Shown piece by piece: positions 2,356 through 34,034 of a stretch of 64,000 nt of DNA. The stretch comes from Parcubacteria group bacterium (GTDB lineage Bacteria; Patescibacteriota; Minisyncoccia; Moranbacterales; UBA9337). The stretch spans positions 163-64,162 of the forward strand of contig JBAZSW010000007.1 of the NCBI GenBank assembly GCA_041662245.1, read 5' to 3'. Position 1 is the first letter of the stretch. Each line of letters starts with the position of its first letter. The notes under the pieces are model-generated. The model was not told the origin of the DNA. It was given only the letters and a program-made list of their open reading frames with translations, and ran no database searches. The translations under genes were made by a program, and so were the position numbers.

Positions 2356-3300
2356 ATGAAAAAAATTTTAATATTGGGCGCCAAGGGAATGTTGGGGCAA
2401 GAATTGGTAAATATTTTTAGTAAAGGCGATTACGAAATTATTGCTTGGGATAAAGAAGAGCTAGATGTCCTCAAAGAGAAAGAAGCTGTTAAAAAAATAT
2501 CGGCGACTAAGGCAAAGATTATTTTAAATGCCGTAGCTTACAATGCTGTTGATAAATGCGAAGAAGAAGAGGAATTTGAATTAGCTAAAAAAATAAACGG
2601 AAAGGTCCCTGGATATTTGGCTAAAATAGCTAGAGATATGGGAGCAATTTTTGTGCATTATTCTAGCGACTATGTTTTTGGAGCTCAGATGCCCGAAATT
2701 CCTGAACCAGTAGGTTGTACGGGAAGTTGCGGAAGTTGTGGATTACATGCTGGTTTTGAGCCGGAGATTGGCTATGGTGAGGATGATAAACCTGCTCCTG
2801 TTAACAAATATGGACAGACTAAATTATTGGGAGAAAAGGAGGTAATAAAAAACGGAGAAAAATTCTATATCATTAGACTGTCTAAGTTATTCGGTAAGCC
2901 ATCTTCTGCCCTAGGAGCCAAAAAAAGTTTTTTTGATACAATGATAAGTTTAGTAAAAAATCCTCCAGAAGGCGGAATAAGAGTTATTGATGGAGAAACT
3001 AGCTGTTTTACTTATGCGCCTGATTTGGCGCAAAAAACTAAAGAGATAATTGAATCCAAAAAAGAATTTGGAATTTATCATATTACCAACAGTGATGGGG
3101 TGACTTGGTATGATGCGGCGGAAGAATTGTTTGCGCAAGCAGGATTAGAACATATAAAGATAGAACCGGTGGACAGTGACGAGTTCCTTCGACCGGCTCA
3201 GCGTCCGTATTTTTCTGTGTTGCTTAATAAAAAATTAAATCCACTAAGAAGTTACAAAGAAGCTTTATCGGAATATCTAAAAGATAACTTTAAAAAATAA
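2356..3300 (+). CDS. rfbD: dTDP-4-dehydrorhamnose reductase (RmlD) carrying a ~25 aa Cys/Gly-rich insertion
   Basis: ILGAKGMLG N-terminus, YSSDYVFG and YGQTKLLGE motifs. Immediately follows rfbB. The inserted segment is PEIPEPVGCTGSCGSCGLHAGFEPEIG. Confidence 0.8.
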   Translation: MKKILILGAKGMLGQELVNIFSKGDYEIIAWDKEELDVLKEKEAVKKISATKAKIILNAVAYNAVDKCEEEEEFELAKKINGKVPGYLAKIARDMGAIFVHYSSDYVFGAQMPEIPEPVGCTGSCGSCGLHAGFEPEIGYGEDDKPAPVNKYGQTKLLGEKEVIKNGEKFYIIRLSKLFGKPSSALGAKKSFFDTMISLVKNPPEGGIRVIDGETSCFTYAPDLAQKTKEIIESKKEFGIYHITNSDGVTWYDAAEELFAQAGLEHIKIEPVDSDEFLRPAQRPYFSVLLNKKLNPLRSYKEALSEYLKDNFKK

Positions 3301-3623: not shown

Positions 3624-4130
3624 GTGAATATGGGAAATTTGACTACTGGGAAGTTTCTGATTTTGGTGATACTTGTAGCTACGACAGTGGGTATATATCG
3701 TGGACAAGGAGATACAATTAAACGTTATGAAACGGAGATCAAGGACCTGAAGACAAAAATCGAGAAATTGGAAGGAGAGGTCAAAGCAGGAGATGGTATA
3801 ATCTTGTTGGAAAATTTGGGTAGTCTGGGGCTAAACATTCAAATGCTTTCTCTTATGGAGGCGGGGGATGTCGTTCTTGACGAAAGAACAGAAAAAGCCA
3901 TGAGAAAAAGAATAGTCGGTGATATAGCTTTTATGTTAAAAGTAATCAGTGATTATTCGCTATCTGTTTATGGAGAATTTCCCGAAAAACTCGGCAAGAG
4001 TTTTGAGTCAATTACAGGAAACATCCAAAGCGATAACGTCAGAAAGGCTTTGATTGAGCTTTCGCAAGTTTATCCTCTTCTGGAGAAATTTGTGAAAGGG
4101 AAAGAATTGGTGGAAATGACAAATAAATAA
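3624..4130 (+). CDS. Hypothetical protein with an N-terminal TM helix and a coiled-coil
   Basis: 168 aa ORF. RBS-like ggggagctgggtg upstream. No family recognised. Confidence 0.5.
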   Translation: MNMGNLTTGKFLILVILVATTVGIYRGQGDTIKRYETEIKDLKTKIEKLEGEVKAGDGIILLENLGSLGLNIQMLSLMEAGDVVLDERTEKAMRKRIVGDIAFMLKVISDYSLSVYGEFPEKLGKSFESITGNIQSDNVRKALIELSQVYPLLEKFVKGKELVEMTNK

Positions 4131-4260
4131 TTTTTCCAAAGAGAATTTATTCGTAACTGGATTTTACAGAAATGTAGAATCCAGTTTTTTATACAAAAAA
4201 ACACCAATTTTATTTGGCGGTTTTTTTGCTATGTGGTACGTGTTTTATATTGTATGAAAG

Positions 4261-4608
4261 TTATTTTTTCACTTCTTCCATAAATTTTTCAAATACCTCA
4301 GGGTTTTCTCCGGCTAGTTGAGATAACACTTTTCTATCAAGCTCAATGCTTTTATCTTTTAGAACTTTGATAAATTTGCTATAGGATAATTCAAATTTTC
4401 TTACAGCATTGTTTAATCGGATAATCCAAAGTCCTCGCATAGTCCTTTTCTTAGTTCTCCTATCTCGGTAAGCATATTTCCCCGCTTTCAGAAGGGCTTC
4501 TTTGGCTGCTCTAAAATTAGTACTTCTTCTCCATTTAAAACCTTTAGTTAAGGCTAGAACATTTTTTCTTCTTTTATTGGCGGAAACACCGCGTTTTACT
4601 CGTGTCAT
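4261..4608 (-). CDS. rplT: 50S ribosomal protein L20
   Basis: MTRVKRGVSANKRRKNVLALTKGF...RDRRTKKRTMRGLWIIRLNNA is the canonical L20 sequence. Confidence 0.95.
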   Translation of the reverse strand: MTRVKRGVSANKRRKNVLALTKGFKWRRSTNFRAAKEALLKAGKYAYRDRRTKKRTMRGLWIIRLNNAVRKFELSYSKFIKVLKDKSIELDRKVLSQLAGENPEVFEKFMEEVKK

Positions 4609-4611
4609 TGT

Positions 4612-4694
4612 TTTAGTAACTAGTAACTAGTAACTAGTAACTAGTTTTCAGAAATTAAATTACTGATTACCGATTACTGATTACTGGTTACTGC
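4612..4694. repeat. Heptamer-repeat inverted pair in the rpmI-rplT spacer: (TAACTAG)x4 then (ATTACTG)x5, which can fold as a long imperfect hairpin in the mRNA
   Basis: gtaactagtaactagtaactagtaactagt ... tactgattaccgattactgattactggttactg. The same repeat family occurs at 5503-5599, 31169-31207 and 31606-31650. Confidence 0.7.
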
Positions 4695-4698
4695 GTAA

Positions 4699-4890
4699 TT
4701 ATACTATTGCTTTTAAAATATTTTTAGCTTCTTGTCCTACTATTTCCACATCCGATCTCTTCTTTCTCTTGAGAGTACCGGTTTGTTTGGCATTAAAATG
4801 ATTTTGTTTAGTATATCTGCGTAAAACTTTCTTCCCCCCAGTTATTTTAACTTTTTTTACAAGAGATTTTTTACTTTTCATCTTTGGCAT
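4699..4890 (-). CDS. rpmI: 50S ribosomal protein L35
   Basis: MPKMKSKKSLVKKVKITGGKKVLRRY... is the canonical L35 sequence, sitting between infC and rplT. Confidence 0.9.
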   Translation of the reverse strand: MPKMKSKKSLVKKVKITGGKKVLRRYTKQNHFNAKQTGTLKRKKRSDVEIVGQEAKNILKAIV

Positions 4891-4950
4891 AAAATTTTCT
4901 TTAGATTACCTGAAATTATTATTTAAAACTTTCTATTTATCAAATTATTT

Positions 4951-5493
4951 TTATTCGGGAGCCAGTAGAATGTTAAATCCTCCCGGAAACCTCTTAACAT
5001 CTTCTTCTATTTTATGAGGAATGTCAATACTGCTTACGAATTTTCGGATACCTGCGACGGCTAAATCTTGATGAGCTTTCTCTCTCCCTCGCAAGCGTAA
5101 TTCAATTTTTACTTTGTTGCCTTTACTTAAAAACTTTTCTGTCTGTTTTTTCTTAAAAGCGAGATCATGAGCATCGGTTCTTACTCCAAGTCGGACACCT
5201 TTTACATCAGTTTTTTTCTGTTTGGCTTTATTTAAACGATCTTGTTTAGATTGACTGTATTGAAATTTTCCAAAATTGGCTATTTTGCAAACGGGAGGAT
5301 TGGTATTGGGAGAAACTTCCACTAAATCCAAATTTTTAGATTTGGCCAAAGCAAGGGCGTCTGTATTGCTCATTTCACCCAATTGCTCCTTATTTTCACC
5401 AATAACAAAAACAATTGGTGTTCGAATATACTCGTTTATTCGATAACGAGGTTTTTGTTGAGTGGGTTTTCTTTTAGTATGACGTCTTCGCAT
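4951..5493 (-). CDS. infC: Translation initiation factor IF-3 (start codon uncertain; an AUU start is possible)
   Basis: RINEYIRTPIVFVIGENKEQLGEM and C-terminal KVKIELRLRGREKAHQDLAVAGIRKF are IF-3 N- and C-domain signatures. Upstream of rpmI-rplT, as in the classical operon. Confidence 0.9.
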   Translation of the reverse strand: MRRRHTKRKPTQQKPRYRINEYIRTPIVFVIGENKEQLGEMSNTDALALAKSKNLDLVEVSPNTNPPVCKIANFGKFQYSQSKQDRLNKAKQKKTDVKGVRLGVRTDAHDLAFKKKQTEKFLSKGNKVKIELRLRGREKAHQDLAVAGIRKFVSSIDIPHKIEEDVKRFPGGFNILLAPE

Positions 5494-5502
5494 GAGATAG
5501 TG

Positions 5503-5599
5503 ACTAGTAACTGGTAATCAGTAACTGGCAATTATTTTTTTTGTATTTAGTCTGTAACATTTAACTTGTTACGAGTTACTAATTACGGATTGCTAATTA
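5503..5599. repeat. Imperfect inverted repeat of the same AGTAACT/AGTAATC heptamer family upstream of infC, with an ~35 nt loop
   Basis: tgactagtaactggtaatcagtaactggcaat ... ttgttacgagttactaattacggattgctaat. The arms are roughly reverse-complementary. Confidence 0.6.
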
Positions 5600-5600
5600 A

Positions 5601-6013
5601 TGTGGAGCTGGTGGGAATTGAACCCACGTCCAGAATTGGCTAAAAAAACATTTCTACAAGTTTATTTTATCTTTTGTTCTGTTGCAAAACAGAGTTCTGG
5701 GCTAATAAATATAAGATAAACGAACTTTATTAGTCGATCTTTCGATTAGTTTTGCCAGTTATGCGAAGGAGACATAGTTGGCTATTCTAGTGATTGACAC
5801 CGAGGTCTGCTTACTAGAAATGGGCAGTTCGATGGCTGAAGCAATTTAGGCTAAAGCAGGAGCGAAAGATGGTGCAAATGCGTTAGCAATTGCGTCTTTA
5901 GCTTTTGATATAAAGTTTGCACTTATAATCGTGTAACCGAGTTTTACGACTATTATTACTTGAGTCGACTTGCTTAGTTTTTAAAGTTCAAACTGTCGAA
6001 ACTAGACAGCCCC
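5601..6013 (-). ncRNA. ssrA: tmRNA (ssrA), standard one-piece form
   Basis: The minus-strand 5' end GGGGCTGTCTAGTTTCGAC is the canonical tmRNA start. The 3' end GGACGTGGGTTCAATTCCCACCAGCTCCA is the T-arm plus acceptor. An internal tag reading frame is visible: GCT AAA GAC GCA ATT GCT AAC GCA TTT GCA CCA TCT TTC GCT CCT GCT TTA GCC TAA, giving AKDAIANAFAPSFAPALA*. Located directly downstream of smpB. Confidence 0.85.
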
Positions 6014-6056
6014 GCCCGCATCGCTACGCGAAGCGTTGCGGGCGGGCCCGCCCAAG
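6014..6056 (-). other. GC-rich perfect 10 bp hairpin (cccgcccgca...tgcgggcggg) immediately 5' of tmRNA, possibly a precursor or processing element
   Basis: cccgcccgcatcgctacgcgaagcgttgcgggcggg. No T-run on either strand. A degenerate direct copy (ctacgcgaagtgttgtcggcgcg) lies at 6103-6127. Confidence 0.4.
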
Positions 6057-6135
6057 AAAATACTGGGTAAGCTCTGTTTGCAACGCTAGTAGTATTATCT
6101 ACTACGCGAAGTGTTGTCGGCGCGAATGTTTAATT

Positions 6136-29582: not shown

Positions 29583-30014
29583 TTGCGAATAAATTGGATG
29601 AAAAAAAATAATAAATCTGACATCTTTTTTAATATAAATTTACTCCTAGTAGTTATTTGGATGGGGGTAATTTTTTATTTTTCATCTCTTCAGGGGGACG
29701 GGGTAAAATATAATCCACCCTTGTGGTTTTTTATTGAGAGAAAAGGTGCTCATATTGGTGAGTATTTTATCTTAGTTTTATTTTTAATAAAATTCTTTAT
29801 TAAAAGATATTCTAATTTAAAAGATATATTTGTTATCTCAGCTTTGGTGGCTCTTCTATATGCTTTTACGGATGAGATTCATCAACTATTTGTTTTTGGC
29901 AGAGAAGGGAAGATAACTGATGTAGGATTTGATTTTATTGGAATAAGTTTAGGAATTGTAATAGCATGGTTGTTTTTTAAGATAAAGAAAAGGAAATTAT
30001 CTAGTAAGTTATAA
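29583..30014 (+). CDS. VanZ-like family membrane protein
   Basis: ALLYAFTDEIHQLFVFGREGKITDVGFDFIGISLG matches the VanZ DExHQ motif. The start is probably the internal MKKNNK. Confidence 0.65.
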   Translation: MRINWMKKNNKSDIFFNINLLLVVIWMGVIFYFSSLQGDGVKYNPPLWFFIERKGAHIGEYFILVLFLIKFFIKRYSNLKDIFVISALVALLYAFTDEIHQLFVFGREGKITDVGFDFIGISLGIVIAWLFFKIKKRKLSSKL

Positions 30015-30121
30015 TAGGATATTCTTTCCTTTCCTTTTGGCAAGTGTTATAATAATTTCAATTGAGTTAATGTTTGATGGTACTCATGTTAGTTTTGATT
30101 TAGATTGATTAAATAAATTTT

Positions 30122-31168
30122 TTGATGCGTATTATGTTAGAAAAAATTAAAAAAATTAAAAAGGAGGCTATTGGCAATATAAATAATACTAATTCAATAA
30201 ATGAATTGGAAGATTTGCGCATCAATTACCTGGGTAAAAAAAGCGAATTTAATCAGATTTTAAAAGGCCTAAAGGATTTGACTGAAGAAGAGAAAAAAAA
30301 GGTAGGACCAATGGCCAATGAAGTCAAAAAAGAAATTCAAGAAACTTTAGAAAAAAGAATATTAGATTTGGAAGATTTAGTAGACATGGAAAAGGAATGG
30401 ATTGATGTAACCGCTCCTGGCAAAAAGATAAAAAGAGGACACTTACATCCTATTACTATTGTTCAAAGAGATATTGAAGATATCTTTACTTCGATGGGAT
30501 TTGAAATTGCTGATGGCCCAGAAGTGGAGAGTGAATTTTATAATTTTGATGCAGTTAATGTCCCTGCTGATCATCCTGGCCGTGATATGCAAGATACTTT
30601 TTGGATTAGTAAAGACGAGGATAGGGAAAAAGGAACAGGAACGGTTTTACGGACTCAAACCTCTTCAGTTCAAGTGCGTTATATGCAAACTCATAAGCCA
30701 CCCTTTCGCATAATCATTCCTGGCAGAGTTTTCCGTCAAGAGGCGACTGATGCTAGCCATGAGCATACCTTTCATCAATTTGAAGCTTTGGTGGTAGGAA
30801 AAAAAGTGAGTGTAGCTAATTTTCTTTATATTGCCGAAACATTTTTCTCCCAGTTCTTTGGTAAGAAATTAAATGTACGTTTGCGACCTAGTTATTTTCC
30901 TTTCGTGGAACCCGGTTTTGAGTTTGATATTAGTTGTGCTAATTGTGATGGAAAAGGTTGCAGTGCTTGCAAACAAACCGGTTGGTTGGAAGTGGGTGGA
31001 GCAGGAATGGTGCATCAAAATGTATTTGAAGCAGCTGGATATGAAAAGGGAATTTATCAAGGATTTGCTTGGGGATTTGGGCTAGAGAGACTGGCTATGA
31101 TGAAATATAAGATTGATGATATCAGACATTTTCATGGAGGGGATGTGCGGTTTACGAGGCAATTTTAG
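30122..31168 (+). CDS. pheS: Phenylalanine--tRNA ligase alpha subunit
   Basis: HPGRDMQDTFW, FRIIIPGRVFRQE, GFAWGFGLERLAMM are class II aaRS motifs 1-3 of PheS. Confidence 0.95.
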   Translation: MMRIMLEKIKKIKKEAIGNINNTNSINELEDLRINYLGKKSEFNQILKGLKDLTEEEKKKVGPMANEVKKEIQETLEKRILDLEDLVDMEKEWIDVTAPGKKIKRGHLHPITIVQRDIEDIFTSMGFEIADGPEVESEFYNFDAVNVPADHPGRDMQDTFWISKDEDREKGTGTVLRTQTSSVQVRYMQTHKPPFRIIIPGRVFRQEATDASHEHTFHQFEALVVGKKVSVANFLYIAETFFSQFFGKKLNVRLRPSYFPFVEPGFEFDISCANCDGKGCSACKQTGWLEVGGAGMVHQNVFEAAGYEKGIYQGFAWGFGLERLAMMKYKIDDIRHFHGGDVRFTRQF

Positions 31169-31207
31169 GATAGTAACTAGTAATCAGTAACTAGTAACTA
31201 GTATTAA
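31169..31207. repeat. Left arm of the heptamer (TAGTAAC)n inverted repeat flanking the four-helix-bundle gene
   Basis: gatagtaactagtaatcagtaactagtaactagtatt. It is reverse-complementary (about 29 of 33 positions) to 31606-31650. Confidence 0.75.
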
Positions 31208-31217
31208 TGTAAATGAT

Positions 31218-31589
31218 ATGAATAAAATAAATAATTTTTATGATTTGGATGCTTGGAAAAAGGGACATTTGCTGGTATTGGAGATTTATCAGATCACTGA
31301 CAATTTTCCTAGAAATGAAATTTATGGAATAATAAGCCAAATAAGGAGAGCAGCTAGTTCGATAACTGCAAATATTGCTGAAGGGTTTGCAAGATATCAT
31401 TTTAAGGATAAGATTAAATTTTATTATAATTCGAGAGGATCTGCAGCGGAGGTTCAGAATTTCTTATTTTTAGCTAAGGATTTAAACCATATTGACGAAG
31501 AAAGATTTAAAAAATTAGAAGAAAAAACAAATGAAGTTGGAAAATTAATAAATGGATTAATCCGATCAACGGAGAGACAAATAAAATAA
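31218..31589 (+). CDS. Four-helix-bundle protein of the 23S rRNA intervening-sequence (IVS) protein family
   Basis: DLDAWKKGHLLVLEIYQITDNFPRNEIYGIISQIRRAASSITANIAEGFARYHFKDKIKFYYNSRGSAAEVQNFL is characteristic of TIGR02436/PF05635 IVS proteins. Confidence 0.75.
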   Translation: MNKINNFYDLDAWKKGHLLVLEIYQITDNFPRNEIYGIISQIRRAASSITANIAEGFARYHFKDKIKFYYNSRGSAAEVQNFLFLAKDLNHIDEERFKKLEEKTNEVGKLINGLIRSTERQIK

Positions 31590-31605
31590 AAAATAATTAG
31601 TTTAA

Positions 31606-31650
31606 TCATAAATTACTAGTTACTAATTACGAGTTACTAGTTACTAACGT
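31606..31650. repeat. Right arm of the heptamer inverted repeat
   Basis: aaattactagttactaattacgagttactagttactaacg. Its reverse complement is tagtaactagtaactcgtaattagtaactagtaa. Confidence 0.75.
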
Positions 31651-31652
31651 AC

Positions 31653-34034
31653 ATGCTATTCAGTTACAATTGGCTTAAGGAATTAAGTGAAACAAAAAGA
31701 ACACCTGAAGAAATTGGAAAGGATTTAACTTTGCACAGTTTTGAGGTGGAAAAAATAGAAAAACTTGGACAAGGTTTGGAAATGGTTGTGATTGGTAAAG
31801 TTTTGGAAGTGGTTAAACATCCTAACGCCAATAAGTTAAATGTGGCTAAAGTTAATGTGGCTAAGGAAAATGAGCCTGATAATATTTTACAGATTGTATG
31901 CGGGGCACCTAATCTAGCTGAGGGACAAAAAGTACCTGTAGCTTTGGTGGGTGCAGTTTTGCCTAGTAATTTTGAAATAAAGGAAGCAGAAATTCGGGGG
32001 ATAAAATCATCGGGAATGATTTGTGCTGAAGATGAATTAGGAATTGGCGAATATCACAATGGAATTATGGTTTTAGATGAAAATGCGCCAGTAGGAGAGA
32101 AATTTGTCGAGTTTATGAATTTGAACGATAATATTTTAGAAATAGATGTCCTTCCTAATCGTGCTCATGATGCACTTAGTTATGAAGGAGTTGCACGCGA
32201 GATTGCACTTTTAGAAAAAAGAAATATTTTAAATGAAAACAAAAAGATAGCTGATGAGTTTACAGTTGATAATAATTTGAAAATTTCAATTGAAACAGAA
32301 AAATGCTCACGTTATATCGGAGCTAAAATTGTTGGCATTAAAATTATTGACTCGCCTGATTGGATTAAAAATAGATTGAGAGCTTCGGGCCTAGTTTCTA
32401 TCAACAATGTAGTTGATATTACAAATTATGTAATGTTGGAAACAGGACAACCTTTACATGCTTTCGATGCTAAAGGAATCAATGAGATAAAAGTAAAAAT
32501 GGCTAAAAATGGAGAAAAACTAGCTATTTTAAATGGTGAAGAGATAGCCCTAAGAGAAAATGATATTGTTATTACTGATGGAAACAATCCGATTGCCCTA
32601 GCGGGAGTAATGGGCGGATTGGAAAGTGGGATTGCGAATGAGACTACGGAAATTATTTTAGAAGGAGCTAATTTTGATGCGGTGAGTATCCGCAAGACAA
32701 AATATAGTCATAATATTCAATCAGATGCAGCTTATCGTTACGAGAGGGATATTGACGTTAATCTTACCGAAAGAGCAATGTTAAAAGCGCTTAAGTTAAT
32801 AATGGAAGTAACAGGAGGAGAAATAAAAGCTATCAGTGATAATTATCCCAATGAAATAAAATCTTGGGAAATTAAATTGGAATTAGAAAAAATTGCCAAG
32901 CTTTTAGGCGTAGAAATTCCATTAGAAGAAATAATTGATATTCTAGAAAAACTAGGAATAAAAGTTTCAAGAGAGGAAAATATTTTAAGTTGCTTAATTC
33001 CCACTCGGAGAATTGATTTGAAAAATCAGGAGGATTTAATTGAAGAAATTGGGAGAGTTTTTGGCTATACTAAAATTTTAACTAAACCTCTAAATGAAAA
33101 AATTCAAGCTCCTCATAAAAATGAAGAGCGAGAATTGGAAAGGGTATTGAAAGATATTATGGTTCACAGTGGTTTTGATGAAATCAAGGGATATTCTTTT
33201 TATTCACGAAAGGATGCTAAAACGCTAGGATTAAATGATGAAAATCACATATCTTTAATCAACCCCATGAATCCTGATCAGGAATTAATTCGTAGGACTT
33301 TAGTTAGTGGACTTTTGCGATCAGCTAAAAAAAGTTTAAGTTATTATGAAAATATTGCCATTTTTGATATGGGAAAAGTTTATGTTCCTAGTAGCAATTC
33401 ATTGCCTGAAGAAAAATTAATTCTAAGTGCTTTAATTGTAGAAAAAGGAAATGATGGAGAACAATTTTTTACTTTGAAGGGAGTTGTGGAAAATTTATTG
33501 ACCAAGATTAAAATTTTTGATATAAAATTTTCAGGTGAGTTTGATGAAGATAAAGAAGATGTAATATCTTTTCACCCTTCTCGAAAAGCCATTATCAGAA
33601 ATAGCCAAGGAGTAAAATTGGGAGTTATCGGTGAAATAACCAAGAGTGCTCATAAATATTTTGGAATTAAAAAAATGCGAGCTTGTGTTTTTGAATTGGA
33701 TGCAGTAGCTATGTTAAAAGAAATTACTCGCGAAAAAATTTATACGCCACTTGCTAAATTTCCAGCTGTTAATCGTGACATCTCCATGGTGGTGGATAAA
33801 AGAATGGTGACTTCAAAAGTAGCGGAGGTGATAGTTTTCTTTGGGGGAGATTTATTGCAAGATGTGACTTTATTTGATACCTTTATAAACCCTGAAACCA
33901 AAGAGCGTTCCATGGCTTTTCATCTAATTTTTGCTCATCCCGAAAGGACTTTGACTGCTCAAGAAGTGGACGATAAAATTGAAGAAATTAGTGCCAAGTT
34001 AGAAGAAGAATTGAAGGTGGTGATAAAGAAATAA
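31653..34034 (+). CDS. pheT: Phenylalanine--tRNA ligase beta subunit
   Basis: 793 aa. N-terminal tRNA-binding domain (VVIGKVLEVVKHPNANKLNVAKVNV), B3/B4, B5 and FDX-ACB regions. Confidence 0.93.
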   Translation: MLFSYNWLKELSETKRTPEEIGKDLTLHSFEVEKIEKLGQGLEMVVIGKVLEVVKHPNANKLNVAKVNVAKENEPDNILQIVCGAPNLAEGQKVPVALVGAVLPSNFEIKEAEIRGIKSSGMICAEDELGIGEYHNGIMVLDENAPVGEKFVEFMNLNDNILEIDVLPNRAHDALSYEGVAREIALLEKRNILNENKKIADEFTVDNNLKISIETEKCSRYIGAKIVGIKIIDSPDWIKNRLRASGLVSINNVVDITNYVMLETGQPLHAFDAKGINEIKVKMAKNGEKLAILNGEEIALRENDIVITDGNNPIALAGVMGGLESGIANETTEIILEGANFDAVSIRKTKYSHNIQSDAAYRYERDIDVNLTERAMLKALKLIMEVTGGEIKAISDNYPNEIKSWEIKLELEKIAKLLGVEIPLEEIIDILEKLGIKVSREENILSCLIPTRRIDLKNQEDLIEEIGRVFGYTKILTKPLNEKIQAPHKNEERELERVLKDIMVHSGFDEIKGYSFYSRKDAKTLGLNDENHISLINPMNPDQELIRRTLVSGLLRSAKKSLSYYENIAIFDMGKVYVPSSNSLPEEKLILSALIVEKGNDGEQFFTLKGVVENLLTKIKIFDIKFSGEFDEDKEDVISFHPSRKAIIRNSQGVKLGVIGEITKSAHKYFGIKKMRACVFELDAVAMLKEITREKIYTPLAKFPAVNRDISMVVDKRMVTSKVAEVIVFFGGDLLQDVTLFDTFINPETKERSMAFHLIFAHPERTLTAQEVDDKIEEISAKLEEELKVVIKK

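Follow-up and report, generated by a model that had tools for sequence, protein, structure and literature searches.

The pheS-pheT spacer in a 64,000-nucleotide stretch of a Parcubacteria group bacterium (contig JBAZSW010000007.1; hereafter the window, whose own numbering is used throughout) is occupied by a 476 bp cassette, in which the gene for a small basic four-helix-bundle (4HB) protein lies between two inverted arrays of 7-nt repeats. Our reading, held with moderate confidence, is that this is an intervening sequence (IVS)-type cassette in an mRNA, in which about five NNGTAAY units stand on each side of the 4HB gene, the two arrays being inverted relative to each other, and which is processed from the host transcript. 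What is new is the occurrence of an IVS-type cassette in operon mRNAs, i.e. the known IVS build in another host transcript, and the locus ties a protein family of unknown function to the unexplained 7-base repeats of bacterial genomes. The cassette and its two host cistrons are laid out as follows.

30122..31168, + strand: pheS, Phe-tRNA ligase alpha, the upstream host cistron (PF01409, E 1.6e-99; PF02912)
31171..31203, + strand: 5' arm, about five tandem NNGTAAY heptamers (TAGTAAC TAGTAAT CAGTAAC TAGTAAC TAGTA)
31218..31589, + strand: 4HB gene, 123 aa, S23p / 23S_rRNA_IVP / Avd-like family (PF05635, TIGR02436)
31613..31646, + strand: 3' arm, about five tandem RTTACNN heptamers, reverse complement of the 5' arm type
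31653..34034, + strand: pheT, Phe-tRNA ligase beta, the downstream host cistron (B3_4, tRNA_synthFbeta, tRNA_bind, FDX-ACB and B5 domains)

An earlier note, made from the letters of this DNA, had pheS stopping at 31168 and pheT starting at 31653, and both positions are confirmed: the pheS stop is the TAG at 31166-31168, with the first heptamer beginning 2 nt later, and 6 nt separate the 3' array from the pheT ATG. What fills the gap, with 2 nt and 6 nt left over, is arms and gene together; the note had named the reading frame alone. The described arms of about 33 bp, built from reverse-complementary TAGTAAC heptamers, are borne out by Tandem Repeats Finder, which reports period-7 arrays of TAGTAAC x4.7 (31171-31203) and TTACTAG x4.9 (31613-31646). 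As extended by the repeat finder, the inverted-repeat arms (31166-31203 and 31614-31651) are 38 nt long and 84% complementary, with 93% complementarity over an inner 27-nt stretch. The long stem that the note anticipated also appears on folding a 521-nt transcript, where the arms form the closing stem (14 + 4 + 12 bp) of a structure with a minimum free energy (MFE) of -104 kcal/mol (z -3.8); this stem is present in both the MFE and the centroid folds, and the arm-arm duplex of the cassette amounts to -39 kcal/mol. Overall, a stem of about 30-38 bp with interruptions is predicted for the arms.

The window is AT-rich (32.6% GC), which would favor the refuting case raised in the earlier note, a chance low-complexity repeat beside an ordinary small gene. 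Against it, TAGTAACTAGTA with up to two mismatches occurs 26 times in the window versus 5.0 expected (maximum 12 in 100 shuffles), and phase-locked GTAA arrays of at least three units number 6 versus 0.08 in shuffles. The same architecture recurs in 49 of 77 independent homologous loci and in cyanobacteria, Xanthomonas, Azospirillum and, from the literature, Coxiella, and the sequence before the gene has a marked lag-7 autocorrelation (given below); together these results refute the chance reading, to which we assign next to no probability.

No promoter-like or terminator-like + strand site is predicted within the cassette (region 29900-32000 scanned), and the sole + strand terminator-like match, at 31932-31954, is inside pheT. 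The GC-rich stem and U-tract of an intrinsic terminator or attenuator were likewise not found in the cassette, where ACGTACATG follows the 3' arm, and PADLOC gave no defence-system match for it. A GGAG/GAGG/AGGA motif stands in the 20 nt before the start in only 5 of the 58 window ORFs of at least 120 aa, which suggests that translation in this organism starts mostly without Shine-Dalgarno pairing. Since the host hardly uses such pairing, local structure near the start codons likely influences how the 4HB gene and pheT are translated.

Profile searches place the 123-aa protein in the IVS four-helix-bundle family, as the note had proposed: PF05635 matches at E 5e-38 and 130 bits (cut-off 33.8), with profile positions 2-106 of 106 covered, and TIGR02436 at E 9e-35 and 119.2 bits (cut-off 24). 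The protein has a pI of 9.3, its gene is the only 4HB copy in the window, and its ANIAEGF and RGSAAEVQ motifs are conserved among orthologues and in the alignment with the crystal structure 2gsc. Its homology to 2gsc (E 2.5e-14), an entry with five chains, together with the homopentameric toroid described for such a four-helix bundle (Lin et al. 2006, as quoted in PMC4990558), suggests that the window protein also assembles as a homopentamer. The family comprises 19,383 clusters at 50% identity (E <= 1e-3); close relatives number about 2,000, with top matches 70-93% identical, and come from Moraniibacteria, Parcubacteria, Magasanikbacteria, Falkowbacteria and other groups. Several family representatives (P0250, P0279, P0301, P0331 and others) reach 300-890 aa, the 4HB domain being N-terminal; they could be real fusions, or the gene call could have run past the 3' array into the host gene that follows.

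Among pheS-pheT orthologues the 4HB gene has a dN/dS of 0.08-0.14, with dS of at least 1 and synonymous sites near saturation, and by this comparison of sequences the protein is under strong purifying selection (dN/dS ~0.1). The 3' arm is identical at 33 of 35 positions between the window and a related locus (L001), so that the arms, in the same alignments, are conserved far better than synonymous sites. The low dN/dS and the near-identical arms together indicate that both the protein and the arms are constrained.

That the ORF might instead encode the Avd accessory protein of a diversity-generating retroelement (DGR) is suggested by weak matches to bAvd (PF22296, 36.6 bits), to DivGenRetAVD (NF033474, 31 bits) and, in PHROG, to 'Avd protein of DGR' (E 5e-14). 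Both Avd-specific models are, however, under their cut-offs (40 and 80 bits, respectively), neither a reverse transcriptase nor a template/variable repeat pair is found among the neighbors at the locus and in relatives, and orthologues occur in dozens of housekeeping operons. The sub-cut-off scores and the missing reverse transcriptase at the locus effectively refute this identity, and we consider it extremely improbable.

In all, 79 homologous genomic loci were fetched, of which 77 were analyzable, and arrays were scored as at least three GTAA-core heptamers. The earlier note had pointed to mRNA and rRNA loci of other genomes as places to look for the heptamer arms; at mRNA loci they are indeed present, 49 of the 77 having GTAA-core arrays both upstream and downstream of the gene, while the rRNA arms found use GACRGAN instead. 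Five units per side is the modal number (24/49 upstream, 26/49 downstream), the consensus unit is NNGTAAY with positions 1, 2 and 7 variable between loci and units, and the median cassette length is 454 bp (range 417-593). The 4HB ATG follows the end of the 5' array by 1-6 nt, the upstream stop codon precedes the array by 0-3 nt or falls inside it in 7-nt steps, and the next ATG is mostly 2-9 nt past the 3' array. Of the 49 arrayed loci, 39 have ORFs on both flanks; the neighboring gene runs in the same direction in 44 of 46 loci upstream and in 37 of 42 downstream. Neighboring genes span 133 Pfam families and include sigma-70, MetRS, G6PD, the large and small subunits of acetolactate synthase, and NiFe hydrogenase subunits. 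This range of neighbors rules out a partner or regulator specific to pheST. In 15 related loci, including ones without a flanking ORF on one side, Rfam detected no cassette inside an rRNA gene.

The pheS-pheT spacer is again occupied by the cassette in five related genomes (L001, L002, L008, L010, L015), whose identities to the window are 61-86% for pheS, 40-70% for pheT and 69-85% for the 4HB protein, and it is empty in two Moraniibacteria (L089, L090; pheS 74-76% identical), where TAA is followed after 12-18 nt by ATG. Comparison of these sites shows, at the level of sequence, that the cassette is an insertion into an otherwise 12-18-nt spacer, that it has been inherited at this site within one group of Moraniibacteria, and that cassettes of the same kind lie in many other intercistronic spacers, co-oriented with the host genes. 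The empty sites, the varied hosts, the co-orientation and the missing promoter argue for an insertion that is mobile on an evolutionary time scale, lands or survives in intercistronic spacers, and is dependent on transcription of the host operon. The note's suggestion of a mobile IVS-type insertion in an mRNA spacer thus gains support from empty sites in relatives and from dozens of unrelated operons.

The relatives nearest to the window (pheS 90-92% identical) have in this spacer, instead of the 4HB gene, either a gene for a 167-aa NUDIX hydrolase or a 181-aa ORF of unknown kind (L086/L087 4536-5187, L088 4536-5168), with AAAGCTA(A) 7/8-mer repeats directly before pheT. No GTAA arrays flank these two cargos; the only candidates are a 12-nt inverted repeat and some AAAGCTA(A) repeats, which are unconvincing. 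The differing contents indicate turnover of cargo at this one spacer. In L054 (Moraniibacteriota, 3950-5690) a single 174-aa gene stands between two 4HB cassettes that are 96% identical and have GTCACTN heptamers; additional arrays lie between the cassettes, and the arrangement looks like a recent local duplication or transposition. A metagenome cassette (L155, 422-1081) has 7 + 11 units and a 4HB frame split into two overlapping fragments, and is probably a decaying copy. On one candidate phyla radiation (CPR) contig (L037), a group I intron (Rfam RF00028, 95.7 bits; 4682-4952) lies about 270 nt downstream of the 4HB cassette.

Beyond what the earlier note described, the arrays are general to the protein family, and their repeat sequence varies by lineage. 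Homologues of less than 55% identity (Microgenomates-type) are without GTAA arrays and have GATTNNN arrays directly upstream of the ATG; this clade keeps 4-5 upstream units, with a downstream inverted array of 1-3 units after the stop. Gene-adjacent arrays comprise 99 GTAA and 4 GATT in clade A, and 30 GATT and 7 GTAA in clade B. Over the 42 nt that precede the ATG, lag-7 autocorrelation is 0.61 in the clade of at least 55% identity and 0.54 in the clade below it, versus 0.31 for 255 control gene starts. On cyanobacterial plasmids, 4HB copies lie between co-directional genes and are flanked by arrays of the AGGAGTC/CCTGACT type, GGAGATA/TATCTCC, AGGGAAN/TTTCCCT or AAAGCTA. The Xanthomonas orthologues of XCC0516, the protein of crystal structure 2gsc, lie between accB and accC, with an upstream array of GGGAATC GGGAGTG GAGAATC GGGAATC and a downstream array of CATTCCC CATTCTC GACTCCC TATTCCC that ends at the accC ATG. 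The evidence across phyla outside the CPR comes from about 16 loci. A 7-nt period is found in every lineage sampled, and the repeat sequence tracks the protein lineage.

For X. campestris, GGGAATC has been recorded at ~186 sites, of which 70 belong to convergent pairs, in a study that mentions neither XCC0516 nor accBC (Rehm et al. 2015, PMC4692102), and S23p is absent from the main text and supplement of the work on TAACTGA repeats (MacGregor 2015). We found no open-access paper linking PF05635/S23p to heptamer arrays in general; a description elsewhere is possible, and the family-wide association of S23p-type proteins with lineage-specific heptamer arrays is apparently undescribed. On cyanobacterial plasmids the 4HB cassette also occurs within cas operons, where it separates cas10/cmr2 from cmr3 or cas6 from cas4 (L083 1456-1885; L085, L233). 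Opportunistic cassette insertion could explain why '23S rRNA IVP' has been reported as statistically associated with CRISPR adaptation modules (PMC10910872); guilt-by-association links of the family to CRISPR or other loci may, in general, merely reflect such insertion.

The six phase-locked GTAA arrays of the window make up three convergent pairs, all in intercistronic spacers. Their unit, YRGTAAY, differs from published heptamer types, and they are, like dispersed heptamer repeats, tandem, intergenic, multi-copy and arranged in convergent pairs. Two hairpins without a gene, also absent from the earlier note, were found outside the cassette.

4614..4693, - strand: gene-less hairpin of cassette-type heptamers, five units in each arm around a 13-nt loop (fold -24.4 kcal/mol, z -4.3)
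5498..5599, - strand: second gene-less hairpin, of more degenerate heptamers (fold -19.6 kcal/mol, z -3.1)

The first fills the rpmI-rplT spacer exactly (rpmI stop 4699-4701, rplT ATG 4606-4608, - strand), and the second sits between the 3' end of the tmRNA (5600) and the infC ATG (5491-5493), also on the - strand. Precise filling of these two spacers, and the meeting of upstream stop and downstream start at the base of the stem, would suit a stem-loop of the repetitive extragenic palindrome (REP) or bacterial interspersed mosaic element (BIME) type that sets mRNA stability or translational coupling (pheS-pheT, rpmI-rplT), with the 4HB gene as a passenger in the loop; the Xanthomonas GGGAATC pairs are likewise intergenic and transcribed (PMC4692102). 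A passenger would not, however, show a dN/dS of ~0.1 or exceed pheT in conservation (69-85% versus 40-70%), and a passive stabilizer leaves unexplained why the repeat tracks the protein clade, so that we think this account quite unlikely. The other genes around the pheS-pheT locus encode ClpB, a VanZ-like protein and SHMT. Near the second hairpin, a GC-rich island (6010-6125) between smpB and the tmRNA contains a stem of about 10 bp, CCCGCCCGC...GCGGGCGGG, that overlaps the tmRNA 5' end, and a direct repeat, CTACGCGAAG(C/T)GTTG, at ~6024 and ~6102; the island may be a processing or promoter element for the tmRNA.

Pairing between the arms was compared across loci. Duplexes of arms from the same locus average -33.8 kcal/mol, versus -26.2 when the two arms come from different loci and -14.4 after shuffling, and the match between arms at variable positions is 0.67 within a locus versus 0.485 between loci (Mann-Whitney p ~1e-14). 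The invariant GTAA/TTAC cores are enough to ensure a predicted helix, though an interrupted one.

Several results weigh against the reading of the element as a processed, mobile cassette in mRNA. Pairing at the variable positions reaches only ~67%, far from perfect. In the arms of 47 loci, read on the sense strand, G.U-compatible mismatches are not in excess over A.C-type ones (57 versus 52; transversion-type mismatches number 109), and on this count no strand-specific signature of selection on an RNA helix is evident. The short downstream array of the Microgenomates-type clade fits a single-array function better than a long stem. When sampling started from the repeat, with pattern GTAACTAGTAACTAGTAAC for (GTAACTA)n arrays in viral and metagenome contigs, the 140 loci obtained included a 4HB gene in only 3, so that not every array marks one, along with 9 gene-less hairpins and 109 unpaired internal arrays; with so few 4HB genes and most arrays unpaired, arrays evidently exist independently of the cassette. 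Filled and empty pheS-pheT sites, when compared, reveal no target-site duplication or other transposition footprint. Finally, a signature search detected no rnc gene in the 64-kb window, a result of little weight given how small a part of the genome this is. The wide spread of the arrays is compatible either with their being trans targets of the protein or with repeats that arose independently, through slippage.

One alternative takes the arrays to be single-stranded protein-binding sites, with the helix secondary: a pentameric ring would wrap an array, one subunit per heptamer, and binding would control translation just downstream, of the 4HB gene behind the 5' array and of pheT behind the 3' array. 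TRAP, which binds triplet repeats, serves as its model. In its favor, independent loci agree in four to five of the seven positions of the unit, with drift at positions that matter for pairing alone; the modal number of five units matches the five chains with which the structural homologue 2gsc was crystallized; and 1-6 nt separate an array from the 4HB ATG and 2-9 nt from the next one. The retention of 4-5 units upstream and only 1-3 downstream in the more distant clade, the predominance of unpaired arrays in the pattern search, and the scarcity of Shine-Dalgarno motifs, with which an unstructured upstream region would matter for initiation, agree with it as well, as do the TAACTGA arrays of Beggiatoaceae, which also end ~1 nt before start codons (PMC4679880). 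It accords less well with the equal arm lengths kept in the window clade, with the better pairing of arms from the same locus, or with the Coxiella IVS, whose helix is demonstrably a functional RNase III substrate (PMC4990558). We therefore regard it as possible but somewhat doubtful.

Another alternative, which we consider unlikely, places the function of the arrays in DNA, either as ends like those of MITEs (miniature inverted-repeat transposable elements) or as homology patches or slippage hot spots for exchange of cargo, the RNA hairpin being incidental. It would account for a single pheS-pheT spacer that holds the 4HB gene, a NUDIX gene, the 181-aa ORF or nothing in close relatives and for the twin cassettes of L054; the gene-less hairpins could be landing pads, the absent G.U asymmetry is what constraint on DNA predicts, and repeat copy number differs among Coxiella strains (PMC4990558). 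Arrays that bracket a different cargo ORF are seen on an IMG/VR viral contig (L091, 2835-3461), where convergent GTAAC-type arrays 549 nt apart enclose an opposite-strand 151-aa ORF with two CxxC pairs and hydrophobic segments; this ORF is not a 4HB gene and may be another cargo type. On the other side, the missing target-site duplication is joined by the lack of a transposase in the cassette, the NUDIX and 181-aa cargos have the 12-nt inverted repeat in place of GTAA brackets, and the co-orientation with host genes, together with the dN/dS of ~0.1, indicates that expression from the host transcript matters. Nor do the arms resemble a MITE or REP-type palindrome, as there is no duplication, only a 4-5 nt core per unit is shared, and the unit number differs.

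In the IVS-type reading, the cassette, probably lacking its own promoter, would ride on the pheST transcript, where its arrays would pair into the interrupted helix of ~30-38 bp and the base of the helix would juxtapose the pheS stop and the pheT start. RNase III excision is demonstrated for rRNA elements, the IVSs of Leptospira and Salmonella, like that of Coxiella, being substrates of the enzyme; by analogy, the helix would be cut here also, releasing the 4HB mRNA and separating the pheS and pheT cistrons. Left uncleaved, it would sequester the 4HB start region. The heptamers may moreover be read by a sequence-specific reader, most economically the encoded and putatively pentameric protein, which is basic and has in Avd a relative that binds an RNA stem-loop. 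The invariant core with drifting flanks and the change of the core with the protein clade point to a reader of this kind, as does the preference for five units, and a reader protein would also explain gene-less hairpins of the cassette-type repeat elsewhere in the genome.

A broader proposal, tentative and in our estimation more apt to fail than to hold, is that S23p-type pentamers are sequence-specific partners of dispersed, lineage-specific heptamer repeats: GTAAY in the CPR, GGGAATC in Xanthomonas, repeats like the short tandemly repeated repetitive (STRR) sequences in cyanobacteria, and perhaps TAACTGA. One subunit would contact each 7-nt unit, hence arrays of about five; the gene's position inside an array pair would provide both autoregulation and a means of spread; gene-less arrays and hairpins, such as those of rpmI-rplT and tmRNA-infC, would be trans targets; and rRNA IVSs would be copies that landed in rRNA. 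If true, this would amount to a widespread, undescribed post-transcriptional (or recombinational) system.

Three puzzles have long been kept separate, namely the function of the S23p protein, why rRNA IVSs exist, and why heptamers are over-represented in bacterial intergenic regions, and the present results suggest that they are facets of one thing: a conserved small gene between inverted, lineage-specific heptamer arrays that enters the transcribed spacers of essential operons, its hosts including pheST, accBC, ilvBN-like and cas operons and rRNA. The idea is directly testable, given the crystal structure 2gsc and culturable Xanthomonas with its ~186 GGGAATC sites.

Among known systems, REP/BIME and MITE palindromes are similar in being short, multi-copy, imperfect palindromes in intercistronic spacers that are transcribed with the operon. 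They differ in that the arms here are arrays of 7-nt units with an invariant core and some copies carry a conserved protein gene, while target-site duplications and an associated transposase, of the REP-associated tyrosine transposase (RAYT) type or any other, were not seen. Avd (PDB 4DWL; bRT-Avd:RNA cryo-EM) is a family member with a homologous 4HB fold, a basic pentameric barrel that binds a structured RNA stem-loop (bioRxiv 10.1101/2023.10.23.563531). Unlike Avd systems, the window cassette is intercistronic, has no reverse transcriptase or template/variable repeats, and scores below the cut-offs of the Avd models.

The IVS architecture that the earlier note recognized in the cassette is that of true rRNA elements. 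IVSs are inserted in helix 9, 25 or 45 of 23S rRNA, or in 16S rRNA. The one true rRNA IVS of our searches turned up among the plasmid matches: on Azospirillum lipoferum plasmid AZO_p2 (tblastn), a 4HB ORF (2893-3240) lies inside a 23S rRNA gene (Rfam LSU, L237 1684-4882), flanked by GACGGAT GACAGAG GACGGAG GACAGAA upstream and ATCCGTC CTCTGTC TTCTGTC ATCCGTC downstream. The Coxiella burnetii IVS, in helix 45 of 23S rRNA, has 2-4 tandem GACAGAT heptamers, in a number that varies by strain, upstream of the S23p ATG; they form part of a 28-bp stem, in which the first repeat is the site of RNase III cleavage (PMC4990558). The heptamer-array architecture is therefore common to bona fide 23S rRNA IVSs and the cassette. 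Shared are the protein family in the loop, terminal inverted repeats that enclose the element as stem arms of tandem heptamers in variable number, the reliance on a host transcript and the size (476 bp in the window, 428-444 nt in Coxiella). The two differ in host, the pheS-pheT spacer of a protein-coding operon versus rRNA, Rfam detecting no rRNA anywhere in the window; in heptamer, NNGTAAY versus the GACRGAN of the Azospirillum and Coxiella IVSs; and in the state of the ORF, which in the window is under strong purifying selection whereas that of Coxiella is decaying and probably untranslated (PMC4990558). The comparison supports viewing the window element as bona fide IVS anatomy in an mRNA, and not as an IVS in the strict sense.

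Dispersed heptamer repeats are the other relation. STRR heptamers have been known from Calothrix and Nostoc since 1990. Later descriptions cover GGGAATC in Xanthomonas and GGGGAYT in Nostoc (PMC4692102), and TAACTGA in Beggiatoaceae, Cyanobacteria and Bacteroidetes (PMC4679880). Like the window arrays, these are tandem 7-nt intergenic units in operon spacers, often abutting start codons and often in convergent pairs capable of forming stem-loops, with a copy number that varies between relatives, and the two gene-less hairpins of the window are of this kind. Studies of dispersed repeats connected no protein with them; here the repeats bracket a PF05635 gene, and the Xanthomonas family member XCC0516 is bracketed by the GGGAATC repeat itself.

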